From NCBI GenBank assembly GCA_012646185.1, contig GCA_012646185.1_4706.1: DNA of 64,000 nt; one strand, given 5' to 3'. Shown piece after piece: positions 2,532 to 51,139 of the stretch. Source of the DNA: a phage. Below the pieces are notes generated by a model that searched no databases, had not been told where the DNA came from, and saw only the letters and a program-made list of their open reading frames with translations. Within the stretch, counting starts at the first letter, position 1, and each line of letters starts with the position of its first letter. Made by a program: the position numbers and the translations under genes.

Positions 2532-2557
2532 CGTAAAAAAAAAAGCATATTAACCTC

Positions 2558-2594
2558 CCTTCCTTCCCCGGCCTTGACGGCTAGGGAAGGAAGG
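2558..2594. terminator. bidirectional intrinsic terminator hairpin, family 1 (UUGAC loop)
   Basis: 16-bp stem ccttccttccccggcc/ggctagggaaggaagg with one mismatch; A-run upstream, T-rich run downstream; lies between convergent genes. Confidence 0.6.
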
Positions 2595-2606
2595 TTTATG
2601 GTTTAT

Positions 2607-3146
2607 TTACTGTTTGTTCGTGGCTTCACGAATGAAAATAACATCAGGATATTCTTGGGATTCAATGAATTCAGGATTACGATAACGACGAATGTGACGC
2701 ATTGTCGTACAAGCAAGTTTGTAAAGATGTTCCTCCTCACGTTGTGTTAATAACATCAGTTGCGCGTCTGGAATCACGAATGGGAGTCTTTCATTCACGT
2801 ATTCCCGAAGGTCATCGAGATCATCGTGATGAATGCCCTCTGAGAGCTTATATAACGCTTCCAGCAATTCTAATCCACCGAACTGGTAACTTCCTATTGT
2901 CGTCTTAAACAATGCGCCAGAACGCGTGGTGGATGCTCTATCGGCGACATCGTATTGTTCTAACATATATCCGTAGACCATGCTACGTCGATCCAGTGTA
3001 TCCGTAACGAGATTACGCCACCGTTCTAGTCTTTTGAGCGCTTTGTCGATAGAGTAAACGATCATGCCATGTTCATCCAACTCTTCCGCAATACCCAATA
3101 GTTCATTGTTGTTAGGTTTTGCTGCACCGATAAGAAAAACACTCAT
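2607..3146 (-). CDS. hypothetical protein
   Basis: 179-aa ORF; start overlaps the upstream stop as TAATG. Confidence 0.55.
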   Translation of the reverse strand: MSVFLIGAAKPNNNELLGIAEELDEHGMIVYSIDKALKRLERWRNLVTDTLDRRSMVYGYMLEQYDVADRASTTRSGALFKTTIGSYQFGGLELLEALYKLSEGIHHDDLDDLREYVNERLPFVIPDAQLMLLTQREEEHLYKLACTTMRHIRRYRNPEFIESQEYPDVIFIREATNKQ

Positions 3147-3559
3147 TACTCAAACTCCTTATTCCAAAACTCGATTAATGAATCGAGCTGTTCCTTACTG
3201 GTTATCTCACCTCCCCTAACAAAATGAAATCGTTCTTGAATGGCGATCTTTTCAAGGATATCGGTAAGCGAATGACGGTGACAGAAATTTCCTGCAGGAC
3301 AATAACACCCTAACACCACAACCGGATGGGAGAATAAAGCCAGCCACTCCGATGTATGATCAACAAAGCTTTTACGCATAAGCGTGTAGTAGCCTGCGGT
3401 ATATTCATCCTCGGTTAACGTTTTTGATTTGATTCCTGTAACAAGTTCCCATGAAGGTGCGAAGAGCGGGTTACCTGTTTTCACCGTCGTGTCCAGTAGG
3501 AACGCTCGTGTGTCTGAAAGCCAACGATATTTGGCTAATTGAAGGGTGTATAAAAACAC
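3146..3559 (-). CDS. hypothetical protein with CYCPAGNFCHRH Cys/His motif
   Basis: 137-aa ORF with a conserved-looking Cys/His cluster; family not verified. Confidence 0.5.
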   Translation of the reverse strand: MFLYTLQLAKYRWLSDTRAFLLDTTVKTGNPLFAPSWELVTGIKSKTLTEDEYTAGYYTLMRKSFVDHTSEWLALFSHPVVVLGCYCPAGNFCHRHSLTDILEKIAIQERFHFVRGGEITSKEQLDSLIEFWNKEFE

Positions 3560-3602
3560 AGCGCTAACCCCAAAGGATAAAAATAAAACCTTGACATAAC
3601 CA

Positions 3603-3632
3603 CCACCGTAGCCCCATACAGGGCTACGGTGG
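3603..3632 (-). terminator. intrinsic terminator hairpin
   Basis: Perfect 12-bp stem ccaccgtagccc/gggctacggtgg, loop cataca, U-rich tract on the minus strand, directly after the 3663..4142 gene. Confidence 0.55.
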
Positions 3633-3662
3633 GGTCATACAGAGAGACGTGTTAAGTTACAA

Positions 3663-4142
3663 TCAGTCTTTCAGCAGCTCAGCTGCATACGCACTGATGT
3701 TGTCGCGAATATGCTTAACCTGAGTTGTCGGGAAAGATTTCTTATACGCGGTAGTCAGGCGTCCGTAAACCTGTTTCTTCTCGTTAGAGCCGAAACCAAC
3801 TTCAGCGCTACGTTGAACCGTTGCAGACACAACGTCTTTGCCCAGCGGCAGGGTTACAGAAACAACGTCAACCTGTTTGTTATCCGCCATGAACTGCGCG
3901 CCAACGCGGCCAACCGCCAGACCGTGAGCCAGACCGATATCGGTGGTCAGTTTCTGTGCTTTTTCCAGGATTTCTTTTTCTTCCGGCGTTACCAGAGTAC
4001 CCAGGAAATCACTGCCTAACTTCTGGCTACCAGATTCGTCCAGTTTAATACCAGCGGCGATTTTATCAGAAAGAGCCTGAACTTCCGGACGTACGTTAGA
4101 AGTGGTTTCAGTCGCTACGGTGGTTTCTACAGCTTCAGACAT
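3663..4142 (-). CDS. hypothetical acidic protein, likely abundant
   Basis: 159-aa ORF, GGAG RBS, codon usage dominated by preferred codons, downstream of a CTATATTAC promoter motif. Confidence 0.6.
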   Translation of the reverse strand: MSEAVETTVATETTSNVRPEVQALSDKIAAGIKLDESGSQKLGSDFLGTLVTPEEKEILEKAQKLTTDIGLAHGLAVGRVGAQFMADNKQVDVVSVTLPLGKDVVSATVQRSAEVGFGSNEKKQVYGRLTTAYKKSFPTTQVKHIRDNISAYAAELLKD

Positions 4143-4259
4143 GTTAATACTCCAATTAGTTTTTTCGATCGATCAAAAGGATAAAATCAGAAGATTCTTT
4201 CTTCATAGGGAAAACACAAGTCGGTTAAGGTTTACTTCTTAAACTCCTTGCGTTCTATC

Positions 4260-4290
4260 AGTTAGGTAATATAGACCTCAACTTTTTTCC
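4260..4290 (-). promoter_or_regulatory. early-type promoter candidate (CTATATTACC motif)
   Basis: Minus strand reads AAAAAAGTTGAGGTCTATATTACCTAA; same motif at three other sites, all upstream of minus-strand genes. Confidence 0.5.
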
Positions 4291-5078
4291 AATAATGCTG
4301 CAACGTTCCGCGCGAAACGAATTACCTTGTAATTGCGGGTCTGTTTGATATCTTCTTCCCCATCACTGTCACCTTCAGACGGATCTTCCCACATGAAGTC
4401 TTGTTCGTCCGCTTTCTGTAAGTAGCGGTATAACTGCACCATGCTGCGTGCGGTCGGAGAGATAGCGCGAAGCTCATCCAATTCTTCATCCGTGAGCAGA
4501 ACATGCGGTGAACGCAGTGGTTCCATTGTCGTATTACACAACAGACGAATCAGCAGATCGACGCACGGAATAACCGAACCTGGTGAGGCGATTTCTGGGT
4601 GTAATGTATAACCCCAATATACAGTGTTAAAATACGTCAAAACAGCAGGTAGTGACGGATGTTCCATCGCACGGCCAATTTGTTGTCTTACGATAGATGC
4701 ACGATCGTTCAATACATCGAAAGTAATCTGCTGCGGTTCCATAACCGCAAGTGAAATACCGTATGCGTCAGCCACACCCAGGATTTCATGAAGGGCCGAA
4801 CGTTCTTCTTCGGTGGATATTGTCCCGATTGCCTTACGCCCTGCAAGGTCAATCAGCATCGGTGAAACAGCTTCTTTAACCGCATTAAAAGAAGCCTGGT
4901 AAGCGTGTTTGTGAATATACAGCGTCCACGCTAATGCGCGCTCAGCCGCATGAAGCAGATCGACATAAGACAGTTCTTGATGGCATGGGCCATACACACT
5001 CACAGCAAGCTTGGTGGCTTTCTCAGAGGCTTGCATAATAACATCCGGTGATTTAGGCATATCGCGTTCTTCTTGCAT
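4278..5078 (-). CDS. hypothetical protein
   Basis: 266-aa ORF. Confidence 0.55.
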   Translation of the reverse strand: MQEERDMPKSPDVIMQASEKATKLAVSVYGPCHQELSYVDLLHAAERALAWTLYIHKHAYQASFNAVKEAVSPMLIDLAGRKAIGTISTEEERSALHEILGVADAYGISLAVMEPQQITFDVLNDRASIVRQQIGRAMEHPSLPAVLTYFNTVYWGYTLHPEIASPGSVIPCVDLLIRLLCNTTMEPLRSPHVLLTDEELDELRAISPTARSMVQLYRYLQKADEQDFMWEDPSEGDSDGEEDIKQTRNYKVIRFARNVAALLEKS

Positions 5079-5182
5079 CTTTTAAATTCCTACTTAACAA
5101 TAAAGTTCATATACGGCGTATGTATCCGTAGAATAATGAGTTCCGGTAAGATCTTACATCAAAATGACGGCATAAAAAGTAC

Positions 5183-5207
5183 CTCCTTACCCACATGGGT
5201 AAGGAGG
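5183..5207. terminator. hairpin, candidate terminator
   Basis: cctccttaccc acat gggtaaggagg; U-rich on the minus strand after it. Confidence 0.4.
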
Positions 5208-5359
5208 TTCGTCCATCACGACGAAAGGACGTTATGTGACGCGGTGTCCATAACGGCCCTGGTAGCAGGCATCAAAGATAACAAAAAGGATGTAAGTTGA
5301 GCTAAACCACCTAAATACGGTAACGATTACTTCCGTACACAATATAACGCAACATCTTT

Positions 5360-6169
5360 TTACCAATGATTAAAGCTGCCCGCTTTAACGACGTCACAGC
5401 GCAGATGGTTACGTAACTGATCCAGGAAGACAACCGGACTGTCGCCAGACAACATGGCCAGCGCGTGTTGGCCACCGGAACGAACAACAAGCTCATCAAC
5501 CATTGGTGCTGTAATCGGAAGATCATACGCATCCATGATTGCTTTGGCTTCCTGTTCTACGTCTTTCTGGAACCCTTCCATCGTCGGAGAGTCATATTTG
5601 GTTGCAAACTCGATCCCAGGCAAGTTAACGTAATCGTAAGTCATGACACGGGTCATAACACGACGGCGCTCACGTTGCCAGATCTGAGGATCGGTTAACG
5701 CGCGAACCGAAAAACACACGTTCACCAACGGCGTTTCAAAATCTTTACGTAATGGATCACCGTACGGCCCGCAAGGAATAACATCCCCCATCACCATCAC
5801 GACAGGACGACCACGACGATCACGTCCAGCTTCCTCTAGCCAAATCTTAGAAAAACAATGGCTTACCTTCGTTTCTTCGATTCGTAATGCTCGCTGCAAA
5901 AAGCTGGTTGCATCCTGACCGATCTCTGGTTTAGGGTGACCGTATTCACCTTTCAACGAACGATTGCGTGCGTTTGTTTGCAATAAGCTGTTTTCCAGGA
6001 ACAGCGGTTTCGAACGCTCAAGTTCGTAATATTCTTCGGTATTGTTAAAACAGTTAAATCCGCCTATAACACAGGTGTAGGCACCGTCAGCATTAGGACG
6101 GATAATACCTTTCTTATTCACACCAAGATAACTGGTGCAAACAAGATTACTAATTGGTGGTTGCATCAT
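5360..6169 (-). CDS. hypothetical protein
   Basis: 269-aa ORF. Confidence 0.55.
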   Translation of the reverse strand: MMQPPISNLVCTSYLGVNKKGIIRPNADGAYTCVIGGFNCFNNTEEYYELERSKPLFLENSLLQTNARNRSLKGEYGHPKPEIGQDATSFLQRALRIEETKVSHCFSKIWLEEAGRDRRGRPVVMVMGDVIPCGPYGDPLRKDFETPLVNVCFSVRALTDPQIWQRERRRVMTRVMTYDYVNLPGIEFATKYDSPTMEGFQKDVEQEAKAIMDAYDLPITAPMVDELVVRSGGQHALAMLSGDSPVVFLDQLRNHLRCDVVKAGSFNHW

Positions 6170-6248
6170 AACCCCTTTATAAGCAACTGAATGAAAAAAG
6201 CGTTACATTCCCGCTTTTACGTCAAGAAGGTGACGCGTAAGCGTTATA

Positions 6249-6980
6249 TCACCATTCATACGATCCGGCGCACTGATGCCCCAATAGTACCAACGCGTCG
6301 TCTTTGGCAGCCAGGTATTTTTCTAACGTTATCCGTGAAACAGACACATTAGAGAAATCCATCACACCTAAGCGATGATCGTAATGGTTAATTTGCATCC
6401 GGTAATAACCTTTCTTTACCACCAGAAACTCACCTTGACGCAACCATAGCGGAACGTTATCAACCTCCGCATGGATATAAAACACCGGACATTCTGTCGT
6501 AACGGAGTTTTCCTTCCCATCGCTATCTGTAATCTTCCCTTTGGGGACAGCCGCGATAAAACATTCTCCGATACGCTCGGTTTGGTACCCGTTGGGGTAA
6601 CGCGGATCGTGAAACAACCAATGTTCATCGCTAATATCCACATCGGATAATAACGTACGATGTGGACGTAAGGCGATATCAAACGGAACACGATAGATAA
6701 CGTACCCGCCTAACCAATGGGCTAAGTGACCGCCAGAAAAATACTGCTTGATTGCGGTACTGTAGCCGTATATACAACCCATCAAACTGCTGGACACACA
6801 GATCCTTGGAAACGACCCGTCTTCCATACGCAAGGTACGTTGAGGGATACGCGGCATCATCGTTTTCAGTTCGGTATCGGTGCTAATATGCAATAAACCG
6901 AAAGGAAGCGTTTTGCTCGGCACCCACGCACAACGTTCCATAATCGCTCTTGGGACAATAGTCTCGATAGACGATAACAT
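6249..6980 (-). CDS. hypothetical protein
   Basis: 243-aa ORF, tightly packed with neighbours. Confidence 0.55.
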   Translation of the reverse strand: MLSSIETIVPRAIMERCAWVPSKTLPFGLLHISTDTELKTMMPRIPQRTLRMEDGSFPRICVSSSLMGCIYGYSTAIKQYFSGGHLAHWLGGYVIYRVPFDIALRPHRTLLSDVDISDEHWLFHDPRYPNGYQTERIGECFIAAVPKGKITDSDGKENSVTTECPVFYIHAEVDNVPLWLRQGEFLVVKKGYYRMQINHYDHRLGVMDFSNVSVSRITLEKYLAAKDDALVLLGHQCAGSYEW

Positions 6981-6981
6981 A

Positions 6982-7692
6982 TCACCCCCTCAGAATCGCT
7001 TCTGTTTCGCTGATCGTATCCGCAGGATAAACCAAACTACTATCGATTGCGTTATTCACGTAACCACCCATTAAGTTGGTGATGGTGTTTGTACCGCTAT
7101 CGATAATGTTTCGTAATCCGATGTCGATGGCTTTTAAGGTGCTGCGTTCCTCATCCGAAAGCAAACGCCATGCTCGACGACGATCGTTGGGGTCACGTGT
7201 GGTGATAGACGCCAGAACAGAATAGATGCTGCTATCCGCATTCAATTTAACACCAGCCAATTTCGCTGACGTGTAGAGCAGCTGATATTTTTCTTTTTCG
7301 GTGTACCACCACGGCACTTTACCGAGCGTATAGATCTCGTTATACATCAGCCATGGGAAAGAGTTTCGCATCACGACATCGGTTGACACCAACACCGTGT
7401 CGCCGGGAAGAAACACAAATTCATAAAACGGCTGACCATCCATGGTAATCTCACGGATGTCAGATGGGTCGATATGGAGCTGGGTCAATGCGTGGCTGAC
7501 ACCATACTGACCATCAGGAAGAATAATCGGGCAGCACGCACAAACCCGGTTCTCACTCCCGATGATAGATAAACCCAATCCCTCGTAACGGACGGGTGTC
7601 AGAATCGAACACCCGCCACGAGTAACAACAGATTTATCTTCTTGTATGTCCCAGTCCGCAAGCACCGCAGCACCGTTGCGGACAAGCGCCAT
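6982..7692 (-). CDS. hypothetical protein
   Basis: 236-aa ORF abutting neighbours in an operon-like run. Confidence 0.55.
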   Translation of the reverse strand: MALVRNGAAVLADWDIQEDKSVVTRGGCSILTPVRYEGLGLSIIGSENRVCACCPIILPDGQYGVSHALTQLHIDPSDIREITMDGQPFYEFVFLPGDTVLVSTDVVMRNSFPWLMYNEIYTLGKVPWWYTEKEKYQLLYTSAKLAGVKLNADSSIYSVLASITTRDPNDRRRAWRLLSDEERSTLKAIDIGLRNIIDSGTNTITNLMGGYVNNAIDSSLVYPADTISETEAILRG

Positions 7693-9216
7693 TTACACCT
7701 CGCTAATCTGGATAACGTAAAGCTGCTGGGCCACGTAATCGGTGGTCAGATGCATCGTTGCGATGGTTGCTGCTTCGAATACCGTGAGTTCAGGACGTTC
7801 ACGCATAATCAAATCGATCTCATCGATGAGACGGTTAACGCCTTGAGCGTCTTCGTGATGCATGGTTTTCACGTACAGCGTACGGAAATACTGCTGGAAG
7901 TTAGCTACGTCGGTATCGGTAAGGGTAGCAACTTCACCACGCACAATTTCCATGACCTTCTTACGGGCATCTTCATCGAGGTCCACCGTAATCAGGTCAG
8001 CAAATACACCCTGCAACGCCAACGCGTATGCACGTAAGCGGTTTGCGGCTTGCTGGCTGGCTTTCATGTTAATGTAGTTACGGTAATGCTGCATGAAGCC
8101 CGCACCGTTAGCCAACAGTTCATCTTTACTGATGAGTTCACGTTCTAACAGGACAGCTGCGGTCAGTGCTTCCGGCGAACCACCTTCTTGCAGATAACCC
8201 ATGTAGACGTCTGCGTTAACGAAAATCGTCATCGTTGACGCGTCTTCAGCACGTTGAATCTGAGAAGCCGACGGTGCAGAAAGAATCAGCTCACCACGCT
8301 CCATACGCAGGATACGATCACGACCGACGCGGGCCATCCCGTTGATCGCCGCAGCACGAGCTTGTTGCATTTTAGCGCGGTAGTTTTCAAGCATCATGTC
8401 GTTGCCGTCCTGGATATCTTCCAGCAGGTTAACGGCCCACATATAGCAGAGGAATGCAGGAGTTGCCGCCGCGCGGGAACCGTGGAATGCAACGTTATCG
8501 CTATCCGGATATGTAATCAGATAAGCGGTGTTGTTCGAAGAAGGAGCGGAACCACGGAAGAAATAGTTGTAGATGTCTTCCAGTGCCTGATCGCTCATCC
8601 CTTCCGTTGCTTGCTGTACAAAACGATCCAGGTTTTCATTACCGGTATACAGCAACGTACGCAGCTTATCACCGGTGATAAACGCAAGCTTTCCGGTTGG
8701 AGTGAAATCGTTATTAATCGAAATCAAGCCATTGAGGTCATAATCGCTAACTAAGGCCTGGTACTCTTCGGAGTTATAAAACTCAGGATAGTAACTCAGA
8801 CTTACTGTCGGGATCAGTTTCGGTGCCAGGATGATCGAATCGATACGTTTTTCCAGTTCCGGGTACAGCGCACGGCATTTCGGCAGGATGGTATTACGCG
8901 CCAACTCTTTGGCATACACCACTTTTTCCACCACGTCTTGAACTGCGGTCTGTAAAACTTCATCGTGGATATAAACCTCGCGTTCGCTGGCAGGTGCTAC
9001 AGCGCCATCTTCGGTTTCATCAAGTGTTTCAGCAACAACCACACGTTCAGCACTAAGCTGTACCAACGCATCCGCGTCTTCCGGTGGCTGGTTCCAGTGC
9101 ATGGTTTCACAAACCGCGGCTAACGGAGTACCTGGAATCGCAGCGACGATTTGGTTACGTTTGATAAACCCTTCGACAATAGGCTCAACAGCATAAACGG
9201 TTTTATTGGTGATCAT
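7693..9216 (-). CDS. hypothetical protein
   Basis: 507-aa ORF in the same tightly coupled run. Confidence 0.6.
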   Translation of the reverse strand: MITNKTVYAVEPIVEGFIKRNQIVAAIPGTPLAAVCETMHWNQPPEDADALVQLSAERVVVAETLDETEDGAVAPASEREVYIHDEVLQTAVQDVVEKVVYAKELARNTILPKCRALYPELEKRIDSIILAPKLIPTVSLSYYPEFYNSEEYQALVSDYDLNGLISINNDFTPTGKLAFITGDKLRTLLYTGNENLDRFVQQATEGMSDQALEDIYNYFFRGSAPSSNNTAYLITYPDSDNVAFHGSRAAATPAFLCYMWAVNLLEDIQDGNDMMLENYRAKMQQARAAAINGMARVGRDRILRMERGELILSAPSASQIQRAEDASTMTIFVNADVYMGYLQEGGSPEALTAAVLLERELISKDELLANGAGFMQHYRNYINMKASQQAANRLRAYALALQGVFADLITVDLDEDARKKVMEIVRGEVATLTDTDVANFQQYFRTLYVKTMHHEDAQGVNRLIDEIDLIMRERPELTVFEAATIATMHLTTDYVAQQLYVIQISEV

Positions 9217-9449
9217 TACTGCGCTCCCTCCAACGCATTACTACCTACGGGTTCTTTGGTTTCCAGACGGCTGTTTAAGCGCGCAGCAACCGCATCTTCC
9301 AATCCCAACGGCATAACCTTTTTGTTCACGTCAGGATCGGCGGCATCATTACCAACGGTTTGACGTACGACCTCAGCAACCAACGTTACCGCGTTCGTCA
9401 GCGCAACAAAGCTCGCTGCCCGAGCCGTGTTAAGTTGTTCTTGGTTCAT
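9216..9449 (-). CDS. small hypothetical protein
   Basis: 77-aa ORF whose stop overlaps the start of the 507-aa gene by 1 nt. Confidence 0.4.
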   Translation of the reverse strand: MNQEQLNTARAASFVALTNAVTLVAEVVRQTVGNDAADPDVNKKVMPLGLEDAVAARLNSRLETKEPVGSNALEGAQ

Positions 9450-9480
9450 TCACTTTTCCTTTTAATGTCAGAGCATCGCA

Positions 9481-9500
9481 TTCTTGACGTACGTCAAGAA
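9481..9500. promoter_or_regulatory. perfect 20-bp palindrome TTCTTGACGTACGTCAAGAA, candidate operator
   Basis: Read directly; a related half-site TACGTCAAGAAGG occurs at 6218-6230, also upstream of a minus-strand gene. Confidence 0.4.
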
Positions 9501-9524
9501 GGTACTGCGTTCAGCGAAATAAAC

Positions 9525-14101: not shown

Positions 14102-16060
14102 CTACGCTGAGACCGCCTGCATGGATACGTACATCACAGGCTGCTTGCACTTTCATGCAAGAGGAGACTATATCAAACCGGCAGCGCAACCTGCTACGGT
14201 AACCTACACTTCGAAGACGCTCGTCCTCTACAGGGTGGTAAATCCCTTAGTCGTTGAACCTGCGTTGTTTCACATTCTTGTTTGTAAGAATGTCGTATTA
14301 CTACGCAACAACCAGGCTGCTGATTGCCCATTGTTTCGCACCTTAGCACCGCTTACGCGGCTTTTCTTTCAGCCTAAGCCTCTTACGGAGGTAGTGCATC
14401 TCAACTGTTGTTTCTGCCTTTCGGCACCTCATGGGTCGTTGAGCTTTAGGGGTTCCCAGCATTTCGTAGGTTTTTCAAGCACTCCCTTTCGGGAATACCG
14501 GACTCATTATTAGCTTATTTATTCAAGTATCTGAAATCCCACTTATCTTTACGTCGTTTATCGCACTTGATGTCAGGATGATTAACACGATGCCTAATAG
14601 TTGTTGCCGATAGCTGGCTGAGATTCTCAGCAGATCGTGCGCCAAGAACAACGAGTTTTGTGTCGTCTGGACGCGTAACTTCTACTGCCCGATAATGCTT
14701 ACGTAACACATCACGCCAATATTCACGACGTTCTGGTTCAGCATACTCAAGCATGTAACCGTTAACATCTACTAAACCGTAGCTTTCGTTTAATCGAGAG
14801 GTAGCGGCTGGTTTACTAATACCGATTGCTTTAGCCGCATCGACCACGGTTTTATACGGGGTCTCATTACCGTCTCTATCTACAACCACAATGAAATCTG
14901 GACGTGAATCGAGTAGCTGCTGTCTGCGTTCGACGGCTTGTTGATGAAGCACCATGTTAACGTGTTCGAACCCGTAACCTTCTGGACCGTGCCACCCTGG
15001 ATTGTTATTCGCTCGATAAAGTACCGTCGCAGATTTCACTCCAGTCTGACGTGACGCCTCGTTTGCACTATGAACAACCGTGGTAGAGCCGTCAGGGTGA
15101 TATATCCGTATCTGGTTCATTATACCGGAACCAATGAAGTTACCATCAGCTGATTTAATATCCGGCCATGGTTGAGGATCATCTTTGAATTTAACCACCC
15201 AGCGGTTATTAAACAGTTTGACTTTTCGAACATGTTTGCCCATTGTCGTATCCGTAACACCTGCGACTACTGATGCCTGTGTGATACTCAGGTACTCAGT
15301 AACGGTATCGTTCCATGTATCCCAAAGCAGAACCGGTTTATTGTCGTCGCGTAAACCGTATTCGATGGCGTGTAGAACGTTACGACTTCTGGTCGCCCAT
15401 TCAAGATTATCGAGAGAGTAATTCCATTTGTCGGCATCGAGATGATTAACGTCCAACTTATCGACATTAGCCGGATATTCCCGCCACGCCAACATCAAGC
15501 AGCGATGCAGAACCTTAGTTCTCGTTACATCCCGACAATCATGACGTAGACTAATGAATACGTAATTATCCTTTTTCGGATACGATCTACATTCCTGACC
15601 GTCTTTGCGGCGAATAACTCGTCCTTTCTCATTTATCAGATAACGGGTGTGTCCAGGAATGACACGATAACCAGGGTACTTAGCGATTTCGTAAGCAGGC
15701 TCGAACCGATAGGATAAATTATCAACATCCCAGTTAGATTCGTCACCATCAACAAACATCGCTTTGACGTACTTCTGTGTTTCAATATCAACCAGGATGT
15801 TTTTGTGTGCGATACAAATCAATGCTGGGATATTGAATTCACGACCGGCTAAGATAACCATGTCGCCATTTCTCGGTATCACGACGTGGGTATCACGATA
15901 CCGTAAATTTCCATAGCCGTCTATTTCAATCCAGCTTAGAAACGGAATGGATATAAACTCTTTTTCAGATACTCGCCATTTAAACATCTTAATACCTATT
16001 TAATACTAAACATCATATTAATAGGTTTAAAAGTTAAAAATGACAGAAAATGGCTAAATT
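14102..16060 (-). mobile_element. group I self-splicing intron carrying an HNH homing endonuclease gene
   Basis: Canonical P, Q, R, S core elements in correct order on the minus strand: P ~14366-14381 (GGCUGAAA), Q ~14312-14326 (AAUCAGCAGCC), R ~14244-14259 (GUUCAACGACUAAGGG), S ~14163-14176 (UUGAUAUAGUC); P4 and P7 pairings are complementary. 5' splice site not resolved. Confidence 0.7.
14515..15987 (-). CDS. HNH homing endonuclease (intron-encoded)
   Basis: 490-aa ORF with HNH-type motif DVNHLDADKWNYSLDNLEWATRSRNVLHA, a NUMOD4-like N-terminal segment and three helix-turn-helix-like repeats in the C-terminal half. Confidence 0.8.
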   Translation of the reverse strand: MFKWRVSEKEFISIPFLSWIEIDGYGNLRYRDTHVVIPRNGDMVILAGREFNIPALICIAHKNILVDIETQKYVKAMFVDGDESNWDVDNLSYRFEPAYEIAKYPGYRVIPGHTRYLINEKGRVIRRKDGQECRSYPKKDNYVFISLRHDCRDVTRTKVLHRCLMLAWREYPANVDKLDVNHLDADKWNYSLDNLEWATRSRNVLHAIEYGLRDDNKPVLLWDTWNDTVTEYLSITQASVVAGVTDTTMGKHVRKVKLFNNRWVVKFKDDPQPWPDIKSADGNFIGSGIMNQIRIYHPDGSTTVVHSANEASRQTGVKSATVLYRANNNPGWHGPEGYGFEHVNMVLHQQAVERRQQLLDSRPDFIVVVDRDGNETPYKTVVDAAKAIGISKPAATSRLNESYGLVDVNGYMLEYAEPERREYWRDVLRKHYRAVEVTRPDDTKLVVLGARSAENLSQLSATTIRHRVNHPDIKCDKRRKDKWDFRYLNK

Positions 16061-17529: not shown

Positions 17530-17774
17530 GGAGACACTCCTCTTTACCACCACCGGCTGCGGCGGTATCATCTGAACACACGAGAGACGTAATGGGTGAT
17601 GGCGTCACCCATCGCTTCCTTGCTTGAGGCGAGGAAGTTACTAGGTTACGTACCTGCCTGATTTTATCAGGTGGGCGATGTGTGAAGTTATGCTTCAACA
17701 TTATCAATGCCGAAGGTAAACTTCGTGCATCACGTTCCAACGTAACATGGGAACGTATCGAACTGGAGGTATAC

Positions 17775-24440: not shown

Positions 24441-24452
24441 TCATTAGTTAAG

Positions 24453-24470
24453 GGCGGGAGATTCCCGCCC
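24453..24470 (+). terminator. intrinsic terminator hairpin
   Basis: gggcggga gatt cccgccc followed by tcttcttg, 13 nt after the stop of the giant gene. Confidence 0.5.
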
Positions 24471-24489
24471 TCTTCTTGAGGAATGTTAC

Positions 24490-26634: not shown

Positions 26635-26650
26635 TATTCACTGCATAAAC

Positions 26651-26682
26651 CCCTCTCCCTTCCCTTACGGGTTGGGAGAGGG
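26651..26682. terminator. bidirectional terminator hairpin, family 2 (UUAC loop)
   Basis: ccctctcccttccc ttac gggttgggagaggg, 14-bp stem with two central T-T mismatches; between convergent genes. Confidence 0.55.
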
Positions 26683-27756: not shown

Positions 27757-27794
27757 CACGTCCTCCTGAAAAAGAAAAAAGAAATACGGCATAA

Positions 27795-39512: not shown

Positions 39513-39544
39513 CCCTCCTCCTTCCCTGTTGGGTTGGAGGAGGG
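39513..39544. terminator. bidirectional terminator hairpin, family 2 variant
   Basis: ccctcctcc ttccctgttgggtt ggaggaggg; between convergent genes. Confidence 0.55.
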
Positions 39545-43349: not shown

Positions 43350-43658
43350 ATGAGCAATTTGAACGTTGAATTTACTTCAACAACGCCTGTCATGAATGGT
43401 GTTGGCACTGAAACCAAAATCGTATTAGAACCCATTCCAGGGTTACGCGATCTCGGTGATTTTTATCCACTGATGCCGCGTATACGGAAGGCCTTAAATA
43501 GTATCGATCTTGATTCCAATAAAGATTTCCAACACGATACAGAAAATACCGATCATGTATTGCTGCCATCGGGGATCGCAAAATTCACCTACACGCAAAC
43601 ATTGAAAGCCTCCGATGGTGAAATCCGTCGTTTTATCGTTGAAGTAGAAAGCGCATAA
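43350..43658 (+). CDS. hypothetical protein
   Basis: Start assigned to ATG at 43350 (MSNLNVEF); the ORF-track N-terminal extension begins with GTG and spans a GC hairpin. Confidence 0.5.
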   Translation: MSNLNVEFTSTTPVMNGVGTETKIVLEPIPGLRDLGDFYPLMPRIRKALNSIDLDSNKDFQHDTENTDHVLLPSGIAKFTYTQTLKASDGEIRRFIVEVESA

Positions 43659-43662
43659 AAAC

Positions 43663-43694
43663 CATCCTCCCTTCCCTTACGGGTTGGGAGGATG
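43663..43694. terminator. bidirectional terminator hairpin, family 2 (UUAC loop)
   Basis: catcctcccttccc ttac gggttgggaggatg; inner 20 nt identical to the hairpin at 26651-26682. Confidence 0.55.
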
Positions 43695-44341: not shown

Positions 44342-44357
44342 TCCCCGCTCCAATTAA

Positions 44358-45536
44358 CTACTTCGTTTTCGCCGTTATCGGCTGCGATACTGTAATCTCG
44401 ACCCGATCGACATCGGTACGTTTAACGATGATAAGGCTGCGTTCATCACCGAATGGTTCTGAGATCTTACAAGCCTCTTTAAGATTTTCGAGAATCGTGC
44501 CATGGGGTTCAAACACCGCAAAACCGGAACTAGCGTCGATTTTTACTAAATATACACGCACATTGTTTACGGTAATGGTGTCATCCGTCTTGAACCCACA
44601 GCAGGAGGGTAGACAGAACTGGCCGGGAATACCGGCTACGTATGCCTCACCACCGAACATTTCTATTAACGTCACCGGTTTAAATGTTTTCTCTGGGAAA
44701 GCATTATTAAGGATATCGTTTCCATTCACAAACCAGATCGTCACTTTATCTTCAGAATACGCTAGTCGGTATGGTTGAGTTGCGGACGCTTGCGCTTTAT
44801 GCTGGTTAAATAATTTTGATTTTGTCGCAATCACAGCACGGCCTTGGGCGTCAAAGTACAGAACTTCATACCCAACACATCCGATAAACACGCGACGGTT
44901 ATTAAGTTCCGGAATTCTGACTAATAATGCTTCACCGTTGTATCCAGTAGGAACAATACCACGTAGGATGATAGATTCGTTATTCAATACTGAGTTGTCC
45001 ACGACGATGCTTCGCATTACCGCTGGGGTTACTGTTTTATCTGCGGTAGGTTCAGGTTGCTCAGCAATACGGTCAAAAGGTTCGATGGATACCATGGGAA
45101 CGAAGTATTCAACTATATGCTTGTTTTCAGCACCAACGTCCATGACGGTGATCTGCAAACGCGTAGCATCCGAATTCAATGCTTGTTTCACACGTTCTGC
45201 ATTAGGAGTATCACGGTCAATATGAATCAAGGCTTTTACCACACCGTCGTCTTCCAACCATCCCGTTAAAACGCGACCGACGATATCATTCACATCACGA
45301 ATCGGGAAGCACAGTTCAGCACCATCGAGCACCGCTTCGATTTTACTGCTAATGACGGGCACCTTACCGTCGTTAAGATGCGCCAGCAGACCGGTTACTG
45401 CACCTTCACTAACCGGATGTTTTGTCGTCGTACTGACCAACGGTACGATAAAACGATCTTCGCTGTATTTCTCTGCACCACAGATAACCGGGACTTGAGG
45501 ACAATAATCAACCAGCCCCCATTCAACAGTATTCAT
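44358..45536 (-). CDS. hypothetical protein
   Basis: 392-aa ORF. Confidence 0.55.
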   Translation of the reverse strand: MNTVEWGLVDYCPQVPVICGAEKYSEDRFIVPLVSTTTKHPVSEGAVTGLLAHLNDGKVPVISSKIEAVLDGAELCFPIRDVNDIVGRVLTGWLEDDGVVKALIHIDRDTPNAERVKQALNSDATRLQITVMDVGAENKHIVEYFVPMVSIEPFDRIAEQPEPTADKTVTPAVMRSIVVDNSVLNNESIILRGIVPTGYNGEALLVRIPELNNRRVFIGCVGYEVLYFDAQGRAVIATKSKLFNQHKAQASATQPYRLAYSEDKVTIWFVNGNDILNNAFPEKTFKPVTLIEMFGGEAYVAGIPGQFCLPSCCGFKTDDTITVNNVRVYLVKIDASSGFAVFEPHGTILENLKEACKISEPFGDERSLIIVKRTDVDRVEITVSQPITAKTK

Positions 45537-45568
45537 AACGTTTTCCTTCTTGGGTTTTGTACGTGTTG

Positions 45569-46183
45569 CTAACGGCGTTTCGTACCGACCTTCCCATTTC
45601 GATGGTCATCAAGAATACGCCATTCTTCGAACAGGAGTTCAGCAGCGAAATAACCTACAGCGATGCTGTCTATCGCATGCTCATCAAGATTCGCTAACAC
45701 AACACCATTCCTGGGTGTGATGTTCATGAGGTTCAATACTTTCTGGCGAACATCGTCCTTACCAACACGGGACGTCATGATCCCAACGGCGCGTTTTGCG
45801 CTTCGGTTATCAACCCCTAAGAAAGACACCGTAGGGTCAAAATCGATAACCGTTGTCTGAATCGCTGAAAACAGCTCGCTGAGCGCCATACCGCTTTGCT
45901 TGAAACGACCGATGAATGGCGTCTCACAAGCGACCGCTTGCGGCTGGTACTCTTGCAATAACGTTGTCAGCGAACGACGGTGTTCTTGGATACGTGCGGC
46001 ACGATTACCGTATCCAAGCGCAATATCGCCATCGGGATCATATCGACGTGAAGCGTGCCATGTCCCTGCATACAGCAGTTCAATATCTTCGACACGCACG
46101 TCCAAACGTAGTAACGACGCACCGAGTGTATCGGTGCCAGGGTCGATTGCCAGAATATCGTAAGCGTATTCTGGTGGGATCAT
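45569..46183 (-). CDS. RuvC-like Holliday junction resolvase candidate
   Basis: Start reassigned to ATG at 46183 (ATGA overlap with upstream stop); N-terminal YDILAIDPGTDTLGASLL resembles the RuvC catalytic ILGIDPG segment. Confidence 0.45.
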   Translation of the reverse strand: MIPPEYAYDILAIDPGTDTLGASLLRLDVRVEDIELLYAGTWHASRRYDPDGDIALGYGNRAARIQEHRRSLTTLLQEYQPQAVACETPFIGRFKQSGMALSELFSAIQTTVIDFDPTVSFLGVDNRSAKRAVGIMTSRVGKDDVRQKVLNLMNITPRNGVVLANLDEHAIDSIAVGYFAAELLFEEWRILDDHRNGKVGTKRR

Positions 46184-46995
46184 GGTGTTACAACAGCCTC
46201 TACTGACCATGGGAAGGTTTTCGCAATAACACCTTCCAGGAAGCGTTCAACTTCCGATTGCTCATACACCGAAAGCTTTTCAAACGGCGTTTGGTCTTCG
46301 GTTAAACCTACCGCATGAATAGGACCCAGGTCTTTAACCAGGGTAACTTCGCCTTTAACGCCTTCGCGCTTAACGATGATCGCGTGGTCATTAACCTTAG
46401 GATCGTACAGCACGCGCATCATGGTTACGGCGTCATCCGGTTCATGACCGAAATCGATGGCAACACGAGCATTCGTCCCTTCATCATCCAGAAGCTTGCT
46501 CAGCGCTTTACAACGGTCTTCAATCCAATCCAACGCAACCACGGTTTCTTGGCGTAGCTGAACCTCAACTTCTTTTCCTTGTTCGTCGATACGTTTCACG
46601 GTAACAAAATCGTGTAATAGGCGGTCAGGAAGGAGGGAAGCAATAAGCTCAACGTCGGGTTCAGGTTTTTCGTTTTCCAGAATGATAGTCGCTTGTGCGT
46701 CCAGATGTTCTTTAAAACGGATGTAACGTGTTAATCGCAGAACTTCATCTTGGGATTTTGCGTCTTCGGGAATAATCTCCGTCATGACGTTATAAATCTT
46801 TTCAGCGAACGTCGGAATTACGGTGATTGTAATTCGTGCTGGTGTACCACGCTCCTGGTACTCATCGGCTAACTTCTTCGCCATCCCGTTAAAATAAGTC
46901 TGGAGAAACGGTTGCTGCGTTAAAAACATTTTCTCCAGATCGGAATAGCGATGCTTGCGTGCATGGCCTAGCTTCTTCATGGGCTTTTTCATCAA
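46180..46995 (-). CDS. hypothetical protein
   Basis: 271-aa ORF between the Rad50-like and RuvC-like genes; no Mre11 phosphoesterase motifs seen. Confidence 0.55.
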   Translation of the reverse strand: MMKKPMKKLGHARKHRYSDLEKMFLTQQPFLQTYFNGMAKKLADEYQERGTPARITITVIPTFAEKIYNVMTEIIPEDAKSQDEVLRLTRYIRFKEHLDAQATIILENEKPEPDVELIASLLPDRLLHDFVTVKRIDEQGKEVEVQLRQETVVALDWIEDRCKALSKLLDDEGTNARVAIDFGHEPDDAVTMMRVLYDPKVNDHAIIVKREGVKGEVTLVKDLGPIHAVGLTEDQTPFEKLSVYEQSEVERFLEGVIAKTFPWSVEAVVTP

Positions 46996-47013
46996 CAGAA
47001 ATCCTTATTTGTC

Positions 47014-49470
47014 TTAAATAATCGTGACGTGTTCGTTATATGTTTCAGGGAGAATGATGTTCGTTTTATCAAGAACCATACACTCGGCTTTACGGAACGA
47101 CGCATGGTTGATAACATAGTGGCTGATGAACCACACCTGGCTTACGCGGTGACCATCAACCAAACGACGAACAAAATCCATGGCATTAGATTGGTGCTGT
47201 GGATCAAATGTTGATGCGAATTCGTCTAACATCAACGGATAATCCGTGAACCCTTTGTAATGCATCATCGCGATGATGAACGCGATATTGATAATTTCCT
47301 TTTGTCCCTTACTCCCATAAACAATATCTTTTCGCGGTGTCGGATACTTCTCAGTTAAAAGCGGAAAACGATAGTTCAATCCTTGCGCGTCGATAGCACA
47401 CGGGAGTATCTGAAGTTGGTATTCCCAAATACTTGCAATGATGCCGTTCATGTACTCAACGAACGCGTTGATGGGACCCGCGATTGTTTCGGCAATCAAT
47501 CCGTTAGATGGACTTAACTCATCCAGAACAAGTTGTGCGTAACTGAGCTGTTCTTCCACCTCTTTTTGTGTCGTTTCCAACTGAGCCAGAAGCTGCTGGT
47601 CGGTTTTAGCTTCCTGTAACTGCTGTTCGACATGACTTATTCGGCGAACCGTATCAGACATCGCAGCACGTAACGATTTCGTGTAGAGGTGTTGCAGATA
47701 CTCTAACCACAGTTGCGTTAACGCTTTATCGCTGTTATCAGAACGTACCTGATCTTCCATAATCGCCGTAATGGTTTCCAATCTACCTTCCGTGGCTGTG
47801 ATAGCTTGTGTTAACCGCTCAACGGTTGTTAACAACTCTGTCCTGTTCTTATAAAGCAATTCTCGACGTTGCTGTAACGGTTCAACATCAACCGCTTGTA
47901 CCCGTTCGAGCATACCTTGAAGATGCTTCCGTTCCTGTTCGGCTTGTGTGTAACGCGCGAGTTTCTCAAACGCAAGCAACCAGTCATTAATGATTCCAAT
48001 GCTGCGGAATCCTAAACCGTTTTTACGTCCTTCTTCCAGCAGATTGTCCCACATGGGTTTAATGGCGTAATAATCTTTCGTCCAACGTGTTAACTGACGA
48101 TGCTGTTCCATCCAGAGCGTATAGCGCTGAACCTTCTCACTAAGCTCGGTTAACGATTTCTCCTGTTCTTCAACCCAGGCACGGCCCTTCTGAATACGTT
48201 GTTCAATACCCGCTTTGCTGGTCTTTTCTGTCTCACCAACATGAAAGCGATAATTGCATTTTGGACAGCTGGTCTGGGGTTGATGATTCAGGTGGTCAAG
48301 ATGCGCTTCCAAATCGGCTAACGCATGTTTCGCGTTACGCAAACGCATTCTTGCCGCCTCTTCCTCCTTGATGTAAGCTTCAGCATCGTAAACATGATAG
48401 GTGTTGTCGGTATCAATCCATTCTTGCAGTAATTCCGTTAACGGAGCCTGAACTTGCGTGAGCTGTTGTAAACAAACCGCAGCGTCCAGATTCATTGTTA
48501 AAAGCTCACCTGGATGATCTTGCTGAAGTTGTTCGTCTAAACGTGCAATGCGGGCTTTAATTTGATCGATATCACCTTCGCCAGACTGTTTCAACTGGTC
48601 AAGGATATTATCGATACCCAACAGCTCGTCAACCTGACTTTCGAGTTTTGCATTCGCATTCGCGAGTTGCTCTCTTAGTTCAGCCAGATTCTGCTGTTCT
48701 TGTTGCGATGTTCCTCCTTGGTAACGAACAACCGCACGAAGAAGCTCACGATTAAAATGATGGGCGCGTTGTGCGGATTCCAGAAGCTGTCGTTGATCAA
48801 CATCGCTATCGAATAACGGCAATCCCATCATCGCTTCGAGCGCTGAGCGTTGCTGTTTTAACTCTGCTTCCAATCCCTGGTGGTCGGTGCCGGTGTATTT
48901 CGCTTCGATGCGCTGTGATGTTTCAACCAACTTATTCAGTGTATGCTCATTCACCGCTTTCAGTGAACGTACTTGTTGCTTAACCACCTGAAACAACTCG
49001 AGTGCGTAATCGACGTTAACCGGACATATCTGCGTTAATCGTTCGCGACGTTTCATCGGTCCCATTTCGGTGAACTGGTAAGCCGTTTCGTAACCTAACA
49101 ACAAACGAATAGTGTCATCATTAAGTTCGAAATGTTCTTCGATCAGTTTCCACTGAGCGGGTTGTGTGCCACCACCATTCAGGTTCTCGCTGTCGTTAAC
49201 GTAGAACTCATGCTTAAACCCTTTTTCTAAACGACTGATAAGACGGTATTGCTTATTACGGTGTTCGCAGCGGTACTCGTAATACCCGTCTTTATCAAAA
49301 TCGGCACGCTCAGGAACGGTCGGATACAGCAAAGGCAATAGACTACTCTTACCCGAACCGTTGCTGCCTAAAATGAGTTGTACGGGATTATCTGGCCGGA
49401 TGACCAGCTCCCGAATCATCCCGGTATCAAAACGATTGAATCCACGTAAGTGGAGATAGGTGCATCGCAT
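47014..49470 (-). CDS. Rad50/SbcC-like ATPase
   Basis: Start reassigned to ATG at 49470. Walker A LILGSNGSGKSS, long central coiled-coil with CPKC zinc-hook-like motif, C-terminal LMLDEFASTFD plus SHY. Confidence 0.7.
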   Translation of the reverse strand: MRCTYLHLRGFNRFDTGMIRELVIRPDNPVQLILGSNGSGKSSLLPLLYPTVPERADFDKDGYYEYRCEHRNKQYRLISRLEKGFKHEFYVNDSENLNGGGTQPAQWKLIEEHFELNDDTIRLLLGYETAYQFTEMGPMKRRERLTQICPVNVDYALELFQVVKQQVRSLKAVNEHTLNKLVETSQRIEAKYTGTDHQGLEAELKQQRSALEAMMGLPLFDSDVDQRQLLESAQRAHHFNRELLRAVVRYQGGTSQQEQQNLAELREQLANANAKLESQVDELLGIDNILDQLKQSGEGDIDQIKARIARLDEQLQQDHPGELLTMNLDAAVCLQQLTQVQAPLTELLQEWIDTDNTYHVYDAEAYIKEEEAARMRLRNAKHALADLEAHLDHLNHQPQTSCPKCNYRFHVGETEKTSKAGIEQRIQKGRAWVEEQEKSLTELSEKVQRYTLWMEQHRQLTRWTKDYYAIKPMWDNLLEEGRKNGLGFRSIGIINDWLLAFEKLARYTQAEQERKHLQGMLERVQAVDVEPLQQRRELLYKNRTELLTTVERLTQAITATEGRLETITAIMEDQVRSDNSDKALTQLWLEYLQHLYTKSLRAAMSDTVRRISHVEQQLQEAKTDQQLLAQLETTQKEVEEQLSYAQLVLDELSPSNGLIAETIAGPINAFVEYMNGIIASIWEYQLQILPCAIDAQGLNYRFPLLTEKYPTPRKDIVYGSKGQKEIINIAFIIAMMHYKGFTDYPLMLDEFASTFDPQHQSNAMDFVRRLVDGHRVSQVWFISHYVINHASFRKAECMVLDKTNIILPETYNEHVTII

Positions 49471-49584
49471 GCTATGATAATCCTTCTTCGATACCTTCTG
49501 AACCACGGGTTCAGAATGCGAAGCTGAAGCCATACTTCAGCGTTATTTTCTATATCGTTATTTAAATCAGTAGGAGATTACAGC

Positions 49585-50673
49585 ATGAGCGACCTGGCAA
49601 CAGACAATCGCACAAAAGGGAGTCAGCTAGCTCCAGACAACAACGTAAGCGTTTTCCGTATCTATGCCTTGGGTACTGTTGCTGCCGACTTTTCCAATAA
49701 AAGTCTGGAGGAAGATCCTAACCAGGCGCTGGAGGTCTTTCTTGATGAGATGATGTCAGGCGCTGATGGGAAAGTTGAAGCGGCGGGAAGCGTGAAAGAA
49801 GTCAGTGCAACAGACGCTCAAGGGAACAGCTATACGGCGAAAGCGGCAACAACAACCAGCGTACAGTGTTATTGGTTACCTTTCGGTAGTAACCGGATGA
49901 CAGCACCTAACTTGAGGAAAGGTCAACGTGTGGTGGTCTGGCGTACCGCCGATGAAGAACAACTCTACTGGCAGCCCAAAGGAGGGGATAGTGAGCTGAT
50001 GACCATGGAATCGGTTATCCTCACCGTCAGCGCACGTCCTAGCGCTAAGAAGGACCGTAAATCGATTTCAACGGAAGACTGCTATTACCTAATGGTTGAT
50101 ACCTTCCTCAAGAAAGCGGTTATCGGTACAAGCGCACAGCTTGGTGAAGTTACCCAAGTCTACATGGAACTTAATCTGGACGAGGGTTACCTACAGGTTG
50201 CGGACAGCGTCCATCAAAATCTGTTGTTACTCCATTTTGTCGAGCATATGCTGCGTTATCAAAATCAGGATGACAGCATCATCGACGTGACAAAAAAGAA
50301 CATCACATTCCAATGCGAGGATACGCTCAAAGCAATCGCTAAGAACGATATCCGAATGAAAGCAAAAAATATTTATACCGAATGTGAGAACTTTGAACGT
50401 ACCAGCAAAACAGAAAGCGTTACGAGTCAGAATGTTTCTTTGAAGTGTGATCGTTACACCGCGCAAGTATCAGGACAGACCACGTTTAAATGTCCGAATA
50501 CGGTATTCACTGGAGCTGTAAGCTTCACAGGTGAAGACGGAAACACGATGACGTTGAATGGAAACTTCATACACATCGCAGGCTCTTGGCGTTCACCAAC
50601 CGGAACAAACGTATACACCCACGATCACGGCGGTGTAGATCGTGGTAGCGGTCGCACAGACCCGTTCCAATAA
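49585..50673 (+). CDS. hypothetical protein
   Basis: 362-aa ORF, ATG with AGGAG RBS. Confidence 0.6.
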   Translation: MSDLATDNRTKGSQLAPDNNVSVFRIYALGTVAADFSNKSLEEDPNQALEVFLDEMMSGADGKVEAAGSVKEVSATDAQGNSYTAKAATTTSVQCYWLPFGSNRMTAPNLRKGQRVVVWRTADEEQLYWQPKGGDSELMTMESVILTVSARPSAKKDRKSISTEDCYYLMVDTFLKKAVIGTSAQLGEVTQVYMELNLDEGYLQVADSVHQNLLLLHFVEHMLRYQNQDDSIIDVTKKNITFQCEDTLKAIAKNDIRMKAKNIYTECENFERTSKTESVTSQNVSLKCDRYTAQVSGQTTFKCPNTVFTGAVSFTGEDGNTMTLNGNFIHIAGSWRSPTGTNVYTHDHGGVDRGSGRTDPFQ

Positions 50674-50699
50674 ACAAAAGAAAAAGAAATGCTATATAA

Positions 50700-50735
50700 C
50701 CTCCTTCCCTAGCCGTCAAGGCCGGGGAAGGAGGA
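50700..50735. terminator. bidirectional terminator hairpin, family 1 (loop inverted relative to 2558-2594)
   Basis: cctccttccctagcc gtcaa ggccggggaaggagg; inner 21 nt is the exact reverse complement of the inner part of the 2558 hairpin while flanks keep the same orientation. Confidence 0.55.
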
Positions 50736-50749
50736 TTATAGTTTATTTA

Positions 50750-51139
50750 TTAACGCGTTGCATTCTGGATGATTTCTTTTCCGATCTTAACCAAAGCGGG
50801 TATCTGTACAGCGGTTGCGCCTCGATGACGAAACGCGGTCGTTAACGCGGTATCGATACTCACCGCACGTCCGTGAAGACGATCGAAATAGACTTGAGTG
50901 ATTGCGGTAGCGTAATCCTTTCGCTGTTTCTTGGTTTGGCTCAACAGCACCGCACTATGACTAACGATGAAGTAAGCGATTAAGAAGAACGCTGCTGACC
51001 GCGAACCGGGTAGAAAACCTTGTCGCTTAGGGAGCATCTCACAATCGCGAACACTATTATCGTTCGCAAGATCTTCCATATCAACACAGCATAATTTTGC
51101 ATAGGTGTGGAGATAGTGGGTAAAAGTTGAATTTAACAT
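50750..51139 (-). CDS. hypothetical small protein
   Basis: 129-aa ORF, last in a run of small minus-strand genes. Confidence 0.5.
   Translation of the reverse strand: MLNSTFTHYLHTYAKLCCVDMEDLANDNSVRDCEMLPKRQGFLPGSRSAAFFLIAYFIVSHSAVLLSQTKKQRKDYATAITQVYFDRLHGRAVSIDTALTTAFRHRGATAVQIPALVKIGKEIIQNATR

Follow-up and report, generated by a model that had tools for sequence, protein, structure and literature searches.

In-place loop inversion at putative bidirectional terminator hairpins of a Goslar-like jumbo phage

In this article, I discuss two hairpins that lie 48 kb apart in a 64,000-nucleotide (nt) stretch of phage DNA (NCBI GenBank assembly GCA_012646185.1, contig GCA_012646185.1_4706.1; the whole stretch is called the window below), which is ~96% identical (96.1% in the hairpin comparison) to Escherichia phage vB_EcoM_Goslar (NC_048170.1), a 237-kb chimallivirus. 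The initial annotation of this DNA had pointed out that the core of one hairpin is inverted relative to the other while the flanking sequences keep the same orientation, and had offered recombination across the palindrome or a duplicated terminator cassette as explanations. Comparison with related genomes makes it likely that the two loci are copies of a bidirectional, phiKZ-type terminator cassette in which the loop is inverted in place by template switching, as a nearly neutral change. The inverted core in the window is a polymorphic state of the first locus (locus 1) and not a fixed property of the two copies, and the idea of recombination across the palindrome gains support from this single locus, where close relatives carry the loop in either orientation between identical flanks.

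The hairpin at locus 1 (2558-2594) consists of perfect 11-bp arms, CCTTCCTTCCC at 2558-2568 and GGGAAGGAAGG at 2584-2594, around the 15-nt loop CGGCCTTGACGGCTA (2569-2583), and the hairpin at locus 2 (50700-50734) of perfect 10-bp arms, CCTCCTTCCC at 50700-50709 and GGGAAGGAGG at 50725-50734, around the 15-nt loop TAGCCGTCAAGGCCG (50710-50724). The arms are palindromic, the loop being the sole asymmetric part, and orientation is labelled here by the loop: 'C' for CGGCCTTGACGGCTA, as in locus 1 of the window, and 'T' for its reverse complement TAGCCGTCAAGGCCG, as in locus 2 of the window. The 21-nt core at 2566-2586 (CCCCGGCCTTGACGGCTAGGG) is, as first reported, the exact reverse complement of 50707-50727, and the exact identity even reaches 31 nt (2561-2591 versus 50702-50732), whereas 14 of the same 21 bases match when compared in direct orientation. 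The exact loop 15-mer occurs at these two sites of the window and at no other, and the pattern CCTTCCC-N-GGGAAGG, present twice in the window, was absent from 100 shuffles. The flanks do keep the same orientation, since the direct score over 20 nt on each side (16, rank 2 of 702 hairpin-pair comparisons; mean 5.3, sd 2.5) beats the inverted score (10, rank 21 of 702). The flank strings quoted in the initial annotation are present as written, but part of what was quoted is not flank, the CCTCC at locus 2 belonging to the stem; and these flanks look conserved because they hold the putative terminator boxes, the A-rich tract and the stop-codon region. Since each side carries a TTAT/ATAA box, the flanks are palindromic in part as well, and they base-pair with one another.

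The evidence that the loop alone changes direction comes from orthologous loci, for which relatives were gathered from IMG/VR, ENA, NCBI isolate assemblies and Logan. In Goslar, locus 1 reads CCTTCCTTCCC-TAGCCGTCAAGGCCG-GGGAAGGAAGG, with the loop inverted relative to the window and stem and flanks identical, and the 7 apparent substitutions in 15 nt that separate the two genomes here amount to an exact reverse complement of the same length. Locus 2 of Goslar equals locus 2 of the window, and the two Goslar loci share one orientation. The C loop at locus 1 of the window recurs in ERZ1643250, SRR10990315 and ERR4504460 and, as the one-base variant CGGCCTTGATGGCTA, in IMG/VR 3300011560, bringing the C orientation to four independent assemblies besides the source of the window (the one-base variant included), while T, or T' with one base changed, was found in Goslar and ~20 other genomes (TAGCCGTCAAGGCC(G/T)), with stem and flanks identical throughout. 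At locus 2, T is carried by the window, Goslar and six more genomes, the flipped CGGCCTTGATGGCTA by four relatives, and the un-flipped counterpart of CGGCCTTGATGGCTA, with further changes, by two genomes. Orientation polymorphism in related phages was looked for and found at both loci, and the sceptical alternative raised alongside the original observation, flanks alike through A/T content only and no variation of orientation among relatives, does not describe these genomes.

The closest genome pair, L113 and L114, differs by 0.6% over 5.5 kb, and across the equivalent of window positions 2320-3809 the differences are the seven loop positions and the length of the A-tract, with nothing else, such that this isolated difference speaks for a recent in-place flip rather than an imported patch. 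T is also the orientation at locus 1 of a distant relative (87% protein identity) and at locus 2 of a distant clade, in which both loci have one and the same 14-nt loop variant; from T in these distant relatives it follows that T is ancestral at both loci and that locus 1 of the window is derived. It is likely that the flip at locus 1 had at least two origins, one separating L114 from the near-identical L113 and another in the group to which the window belongs; C* and T* flips are seen at locus 2.

The paralogous loci also share loop variants, namely G or A as the sixth base of the loop and, in the distant clade, the 14-nt form (L091, L092, L121, L124, L130, L123, L128, L131-L134 and L139), which suggests that the two copies, despite their separation of 48 kb, evolve in concert through gene conversion between them. 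A third copy of the loop was observed in Goslar (L058, 10247-10273, outside the window), between co-directional genes and on a different stem, GCCCTTCCC; in the three genomes where it was found (L058, L087 and L088) it has one orientation, and in one of them a T-to-G change in the loop lengthens the inner helix.

As to how these genomes were found, an initial 15-mer scan of viral contigs returned 83 loci, nearly all of them chance matches, and those with complementary arms were kept. A metagenome pattern scan, which yields one locus per genome, returned three genomes and contributed one for locus 1 and two for locus 3, and relatives for locus 2 were reached through protein cluster members, the neighbouring protein of the window having no exact match on record. 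The locus was also searched for, and found absent, in PLSDB plasmids and complete RefSeq E. coli genomes. Goslar-like contigs of ~235-249 kb are, on the other hand, frequent in publicly available assemblies of isolates that bear the labels Salmonella enterica, E. coli O157 or Shigella, and likewise in human gut metagenomes (loci L101-L134), with clusters of >200 protein variants; a Goslar-like phage evidently accompanies cultured isolates without being recorded as a replicon.

The inversion is not peculiar to this hairpin family, a refinement of the original description that emerged when the window was aligned to Goslar and a census was made of all hairpins whose stem is perfect over at least 8 bp and whose loop spans 3-24 nt, 54 in number. 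Six of the 54 loops are exact reverse complements in Goslar (hairpins starting at 2558, 3603, 5181, 24451, 43663 and 49496) and another two are nearly inverted, with one extra change (14272 and 26651). Among hairpins with non-palindromic loops, flips affect 8 of 25 in non-coding DNA versus 0 of 25 in coding DNA, all eight being intergenic or in a group I intron, and the stems of flipped hairpins are longer and richer in GC (10.3 bp and 64% GC versus 8.7 bp and 46%), while the arms of different flipped hairpins are unrelated in sequence. The intergenic cases comprise 3603-3632, with a 12-bp stem and the loop CATACA (TGTATG in Goslar); 5181-5208, with a 12-bp stem and a loop that is ACAT or ATGT in about equal parts (~50:50) of ~20 related genomes; 24451-24471, with a 9-bp stem and the loop GAT in the window and ATC in Goslar; and 49496-49516, with a 9-bp stem and the loop ACG, which is CGT in Goslar alone, 10 other relatives being like the window. 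Two more, 26651-26682 and 43663-43694, belong to a second hairpin family, sit at convergent gene junctions and share the loop TTCCCTTACGGGTT; Goslar has the exactly inverted AACCCGTAAGGGAA at the latter and the inverted loop with one substitution at the former. The hairpin in the intron (14272-14293) has an 8-bp stem and the loop GTTTGT, against ACAACC in Goslar, a reverse complement with one mismatch.

Similar comparisons in other phages gave 4 exact flips among 42 alignable hairpins between phiKZ and T2P (96.4% identity, 40 kb) and 1 among 42 between T4 and Lv5cm (95.9% identity, 48 kb), the latter at the convergent gene 24 / rnlB junction, and all five of these control flips are intergenic. 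Flipping is general in phages with strong terminator hairpins and appears commonest in the two chimalliviruses, on what are small samples. Under a two-state model, the 32% discordance translates into an estimated one expected flip or so per hairpin at 4% per-site divergence, and the flip rate per hairpin can be estimated to exceed the substitution rate per site roughly tenfold or more.

Some further observations touch the same elements. The second terminator-like family has members at 26651-26682, 39513-39544, 43663-43694, 55287-55318 and, more loosely, 57112-57143, with a 14-nt loop of the form TTCCC-NNNN-GGGTT or its reverse complement AACCC-NNNN-GGGAA and polypyrimidine/polypurine stems that vary by copy; its copies face either way within one genome, and two are flipped relative to Goslar. 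The group I intron (Rfam RF00028, 56 bits; 14144-14530, - strand) splits the region of an RNA polymerase beta-subunit-like gene, and Goslar is longer by ~47 bases at 14181-14194. In the divergent intergenic region of the gp205-like and gp204-like genes (17650-17680), the difference from Goslar is complex, CTGATTTTATCAGGTG versus GTGATAAAATCAAGCA, and looks like the inversion of a small hairpin plus further changes.

What the two hairpins do can be read from their surroundings. Each is held in a spacer of 75-76 nt between convergent genes. At locus 1 this cassette (2532-2606) comprises an A10 tract (2535-2544), GCATATTAACC, the hairpin and TTTATGGTTTATTTA, and it separates a tail-tube-like virion structural protein (1641-2531, + strand; a Goslar gp217 homologue with Pfam Phage_TTP_14 on record), the gene of which ends 27 nt before the hairpin, from a hypothetical protein (2607-3146, - strand; a Goslar gp216 homologue), whose stop codon lies 12 nt past it. 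The cassette at locus 2 (50674-50749) comprises an A-rich tract, GCTATATAA, the hairpin and ATTATAGTTTATTTA, with an outer helix CTATA/TATAG, and it follows a baseplate assembly protein (49585-50673, + strand; a Goslar gp013 homologue) and faces a convergent hypothetical protein (50750-51139, - strand; a Goslar gp014 homologue). At locus 1, AACC (2552-2555) pairs with GGTT (2600-2603) as the outer helix, TTAT stands 3' of the stem on the + strand (2596-2599) with ATAA/TTAAT on the opposite side, and the interior of the loop forms an inner helix of 3-4 bp (GGCC/GGCT) with a pentaloop. Folded as RNA, locus 1 reaches -30.4 kcal/mol on the + strand and -32.7 on the - strand (z -4.7 and -6.1) and locus 2 reaches -32.6 and -30.3 kcal/mol, with z-scores for both hairpins and both strands between -4.7 and -6.2. 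A search of Rfam gave no family for the hairpin at E<=1 and, for the whole window, the group I intron and nothing else. It was also observed that the A-tracts 5' of the hairpins (2535-2544 and 50674-50690) differ in length among relatives, locus 1 having 7-12 A and locus 2 several forms, a variation typical of slippage beside a hairpin.

The passages on motifs in the phiKZ terminator paper give BCCYCCCCHWWDGGGRRGGBYTTATKYYGT for 61 mapped terminators, a stem-loop followed by TTAT (PMC10914365), and those in the paper on 201phi2-1 describe 132 transcript ends, 15 of them bidirectional, with related shared motifs (PMC11512511). Arms of the CCYCCCC/GGGRRGG type in that phiKZ motif are matched by CCTTCCTTCCC/GGGAAGGAAGG and by CCTCCTTCCC/GGGAAGGAGG, and its TTAT(K) 3' of the stem has + strand counterparts in TTTATGG (locus 1) and ATTATAG (locus 2); on the - strand the box reads GGTTATATAGC at locus 2 and, as an imperfect match, TTAATATGC at locus 1 (PMC10914365). 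Like the chimallivirus terminators that these passages describe, the hairpins have a GC-rich stem, with pyrimidines prevailing in the 5' arm and purines in the 3' arm, are intergenic and are repeated across the genome, and their position between convergent genes matches bidirectional use (PMC10914365, PMC11512511). Furthermore, locus 2 bears the annotation 'putative terminator' in the Goslar record. Loops of 3-6 nt do occur in the window, in other hairpins of the Goslar type, the hairpin at 39513 has its stem followed by TTATGCCGT (a TTAT(G) box), 14 of 54 stem flanks have YATAA 5' of the stem at a distance of no more than 14 nt (versus a background of 1.4%), and convergent junctions carry a TTAT box on both strands. 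It is on such grounds that the hairpins are predicted to terminate transcription, and the duplicated terminator cassette of the initial annotation is upheld by what the two loci share: stem, loop, A-rich tract, TTAT boxes and clade-specific loop variants. The (G)CATAA boxes seen 5' of other hairpins, e.g., 5167-5180, 26637-26650, 43649-43662 and 27781-27794, are the reverse complement of the phiKZ TTAT(G), and a hairpin with its box solely on the 5' side is presumably a terminator for the opposite strand.

As for how a loop comes to be inverted with nothing else disturbed, I infer template switching during replication. The hairpin is an inverted repeat whose perfectly complementary arms enclose a spacer of 15 nt. 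While the DNA is being replicated, the nascent strand would quit its template after one arm has been copied, anneal to the complementary arm of the other strand, copy the loop backwards and go back via the second arm, leaving an exact in-place inversion of the loop with stem and flanks unchanged. Such an event in the lineage of the window would have flipped locus 1 away from the ancestral T held by both loci, and it is because of this flip that the two copies in the window would look inverted against their conserved flanks. A near-neutral flip of this kind could recur and spread freely. The most telling case is the neighbouring hairpin at 3603-3632, where most genomes (16 of 18 related) have an imperfect 5' arm, CCACCGCAACCC, opposite GGGCTACGGTGG, while the window and Goslar have the perfectly complementary 5' arm CCACCGTAGCCC, with two positions changed together, and where arm plus loop in Goslar, once reverse-complemented, gives loop plus 3' arm. 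Judged by its sequence, this correction of an arm together with inversion of the loop is the classic product, and the signature, of template switching within a quasipalindrome, and compensatory change combined with loop inversion has been considered the strongest support for the template-switch model (PMC8794818). Arm homogenisation is not seen at locus 1 or locus 2, where the arms are already perfect.

The main competitor, which I consider improbable without dismissing it, is a physical recombination of the two arms that turns the loop around: the recombination machinery of the phage would perform a reciprocal exchange, either in an extruded cruciform or in a single strand that has folded. 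The product expected from such a crossover is the same as that observed, it is the customary explanation of hairpin inversions in the plastid literature, recombination in these phages is intense (among pairs of single-nucleotide polymorphisms (SNPs) no more than 300 bp apart, 24% violate the four-gamete test), and genes for a RuvC-like resolvase and an SbcC-like protein lie at 1-4 kb from locus 2. However, arms of 9-12 bp that stand 3-15 nt apart cannot align as duplexes, flips also occur in loops of just 3-4 nt, the same events are found in T4 and phiKZ despite their different recombination genes, and the joint correction of two mismatches and inversion of the loop at 3603-3632 fits copying more naturally. 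A replication template switch is thus more likely than the classical crossover as the form that recombination across the palindrome has taken.

Whether the flip matters to the phage is a separate question. The fold energy lies between -30.4 and -32.7 kcal/mol in either orientation and on either strand, and it is from this equal stability that the flips are probably neutral. There is a small chance that the flip has a function. One version, to which I give very little credence, is that flipping is so fast that single populations mix both states and the hairpin acts as a recombinase-free phase switch; if true, this would shift a strand-specific signal between the convergent transcripts or turn a weak promoter (a -35-like TTGACG in the loop and a -10-like TATGGT/TATAGT in the flank), and such a function would account for why the 15-nt loop has been conserved in three loci and across clades. 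A shade less probable again is a regulated or functional switch that moves a strand-specific signal between convergent transcripts or strands, with the population hedging two states; a loop bound by a protein could be such a signal, or else a -35-like element. The retention of the loop sequence in three loci and across clades would suit it, as would the near 50:50 split of some hairpins in the population and a sigma-70-like TTGACG-17-TATGGT at 2574-2602 that exists in the C orientation only; but this promoter-like match is not above chance (1 found versus 2.1 expected), and phiKZ, the model chimallivirus, transcribes with its own polymerases and not the host enzyme, according to the passages of the phiKZ paper considered here (PMC10914365). 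Fold energies are equal in the two orientations, no recombinase is encoded nearby in the Goslar annotation, and flipping extends to hairpins that are unrelated, as are their loops of 3-15 nt.

The remaining explanations are weaker still. That the copies were inserted independently in opposite orientations, with flanks alike only through their A/T-rich palindromic make-up, could appeal to the partial palindromy of the flanks (TTAT/ATAA on both sides and the outer helix) and to a whole-element alignment that scores 72 as reverse complement versus 53 direct, but it is extremely improbable, and refuted by the orthologous comparisons, given that orientation at the same locus differs between genomes with base-for-base identical flanks, that Goslar has one orientation at both loci and that the flank score ranks 2 of 702 when direct and 21 when inverted. 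Just as implausible is an assembly or sequencing artefact at the palindrome: Logan contigs do frequently break within the hairpin, because of a 31-mer that the two loci share when strands are merged, but each orientation is present in several independent assemblies (SPAdes, MEGAHIT, NCBI isolate assemblies, Logan and the GenBank phage record), and it can be reasoned that a k-mer of at least 13 covering flank, one arm and the first loop base sets the orientation, so that the usual k is safe. A large-scale inversion between the two copies is ruled out by the collinearity of window and Goslar, which holds over 54 kb and runs across the record ends.

Several points nevertheless weigh against a terminator cassette whose loop flips almost neutrally by template switching. 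Termination in Goslar-like phages is a prediction from sequence and position, the loop of the phiKZ motif has 4 nt (HWWD) in the passages that give it (PMC10914365) versus 15 nt with an inner helix and pentaloop here, and a simple terminator scan, limited to loops of 3-8 nt, called neither hairpin. The evidence on mechanism is indirect, and a crossover of cruciform arms yields the identical product. The population is so recombinant that the four-gamete test is failed by many SNP pairs anyway, and the orientation at locus 1, while incompatible with 67% of nearby SNPs, is equalled in this by 10% of SNPs at similar frequency; in such a population the test could not formally tell recurrent from imported flips. 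Finally, the loop is conserved in three loci and across clades, for which pure neutrality is insufficient and gene conversion or function is needed, gene conversion between the copies being the simplest account of both the conservation and the shared variants.

Loop flipping is a major source of intergenic change in these jumbo phages. Each flip mimics 2-7 clustered substitutions and so inflates divergence and creates false recombination or homoplasy in phage phylogenies and SNP typing, flipped palindromic cores that are common to several loci fragment de Bruijn-graph contigs, and terminator annotation would do well to count both orientations as one element. The many public Goslar-like genomes in Salmonella, E. 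coli and Shigella assemblies also provide a natural dataset for measuring template-switch rates in a phage-nucleus virus.

How does this compare with systems that are already known? Invertons of the Hin/Gin/Cin/FimB type are DNA switches driven by site-specific recombinases, with segments of hundreds of bases. As in invertons, a segment between inverted repeats is found here in both orientations among close relatives; unlike them, the segments measure 3-15 nt, many unrelated hairpins flip and no functional difference is predicted. No invertase or integrase appears in the Goslar annotation around the two loci, which lists structural, hypothetical, SbcC-like and RuvC-like proteins, the hypothetical ones not having been searched individually, and a recombinase-driven switch is very unlikely.

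The minute inversions of plastid genomes, as in the trnH-psbA spacer, come closer, in that loops of non-coding hairpins flip recurrently even within species (PMC2903610), and they similarly bring homoplasy and inflated counts of apparent substitutions (PMC2903610); they differ in belonging to another type of genome with another replication system, whereas the elements discussed here are conserved, repeated putative terminator cassettes of a virus. Loop inversion by template switching is known in ribosomal RNA (rRNA) and microRNA hairpins (Mönttinen & Löytynoja 2022, PMC8794818), and the inversion of inverted-repeat spacers in yeast genes is the same process (PMC8604942). The phage flips resemble these template-switch mutations in the exact reverse-complement loop between complementary arms, the preserved length, the clustered apparent substitutions and, at the neighbouring hairpin 3603-3632, the arm homogenisation. 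A description of loop flipping for phage terminators was not found in the literature searched, and the passages on motifs in the phiKZ and 201phi2-1 terminator papers make no mention of it (PMC10914365, PMC11512511). The inverted loops in rRNA are mostly ~4 nt, partly self-complementary and rare, with 69 cases in a very large dataset (PMC8794818), whereas here the loops reach 15 nt, about a third of intergenic hairpins have flipped at 96% identity, and the hairpins are putative terminators of a DNA phage: the mutational class is known, and the phage-terminator setting is new.

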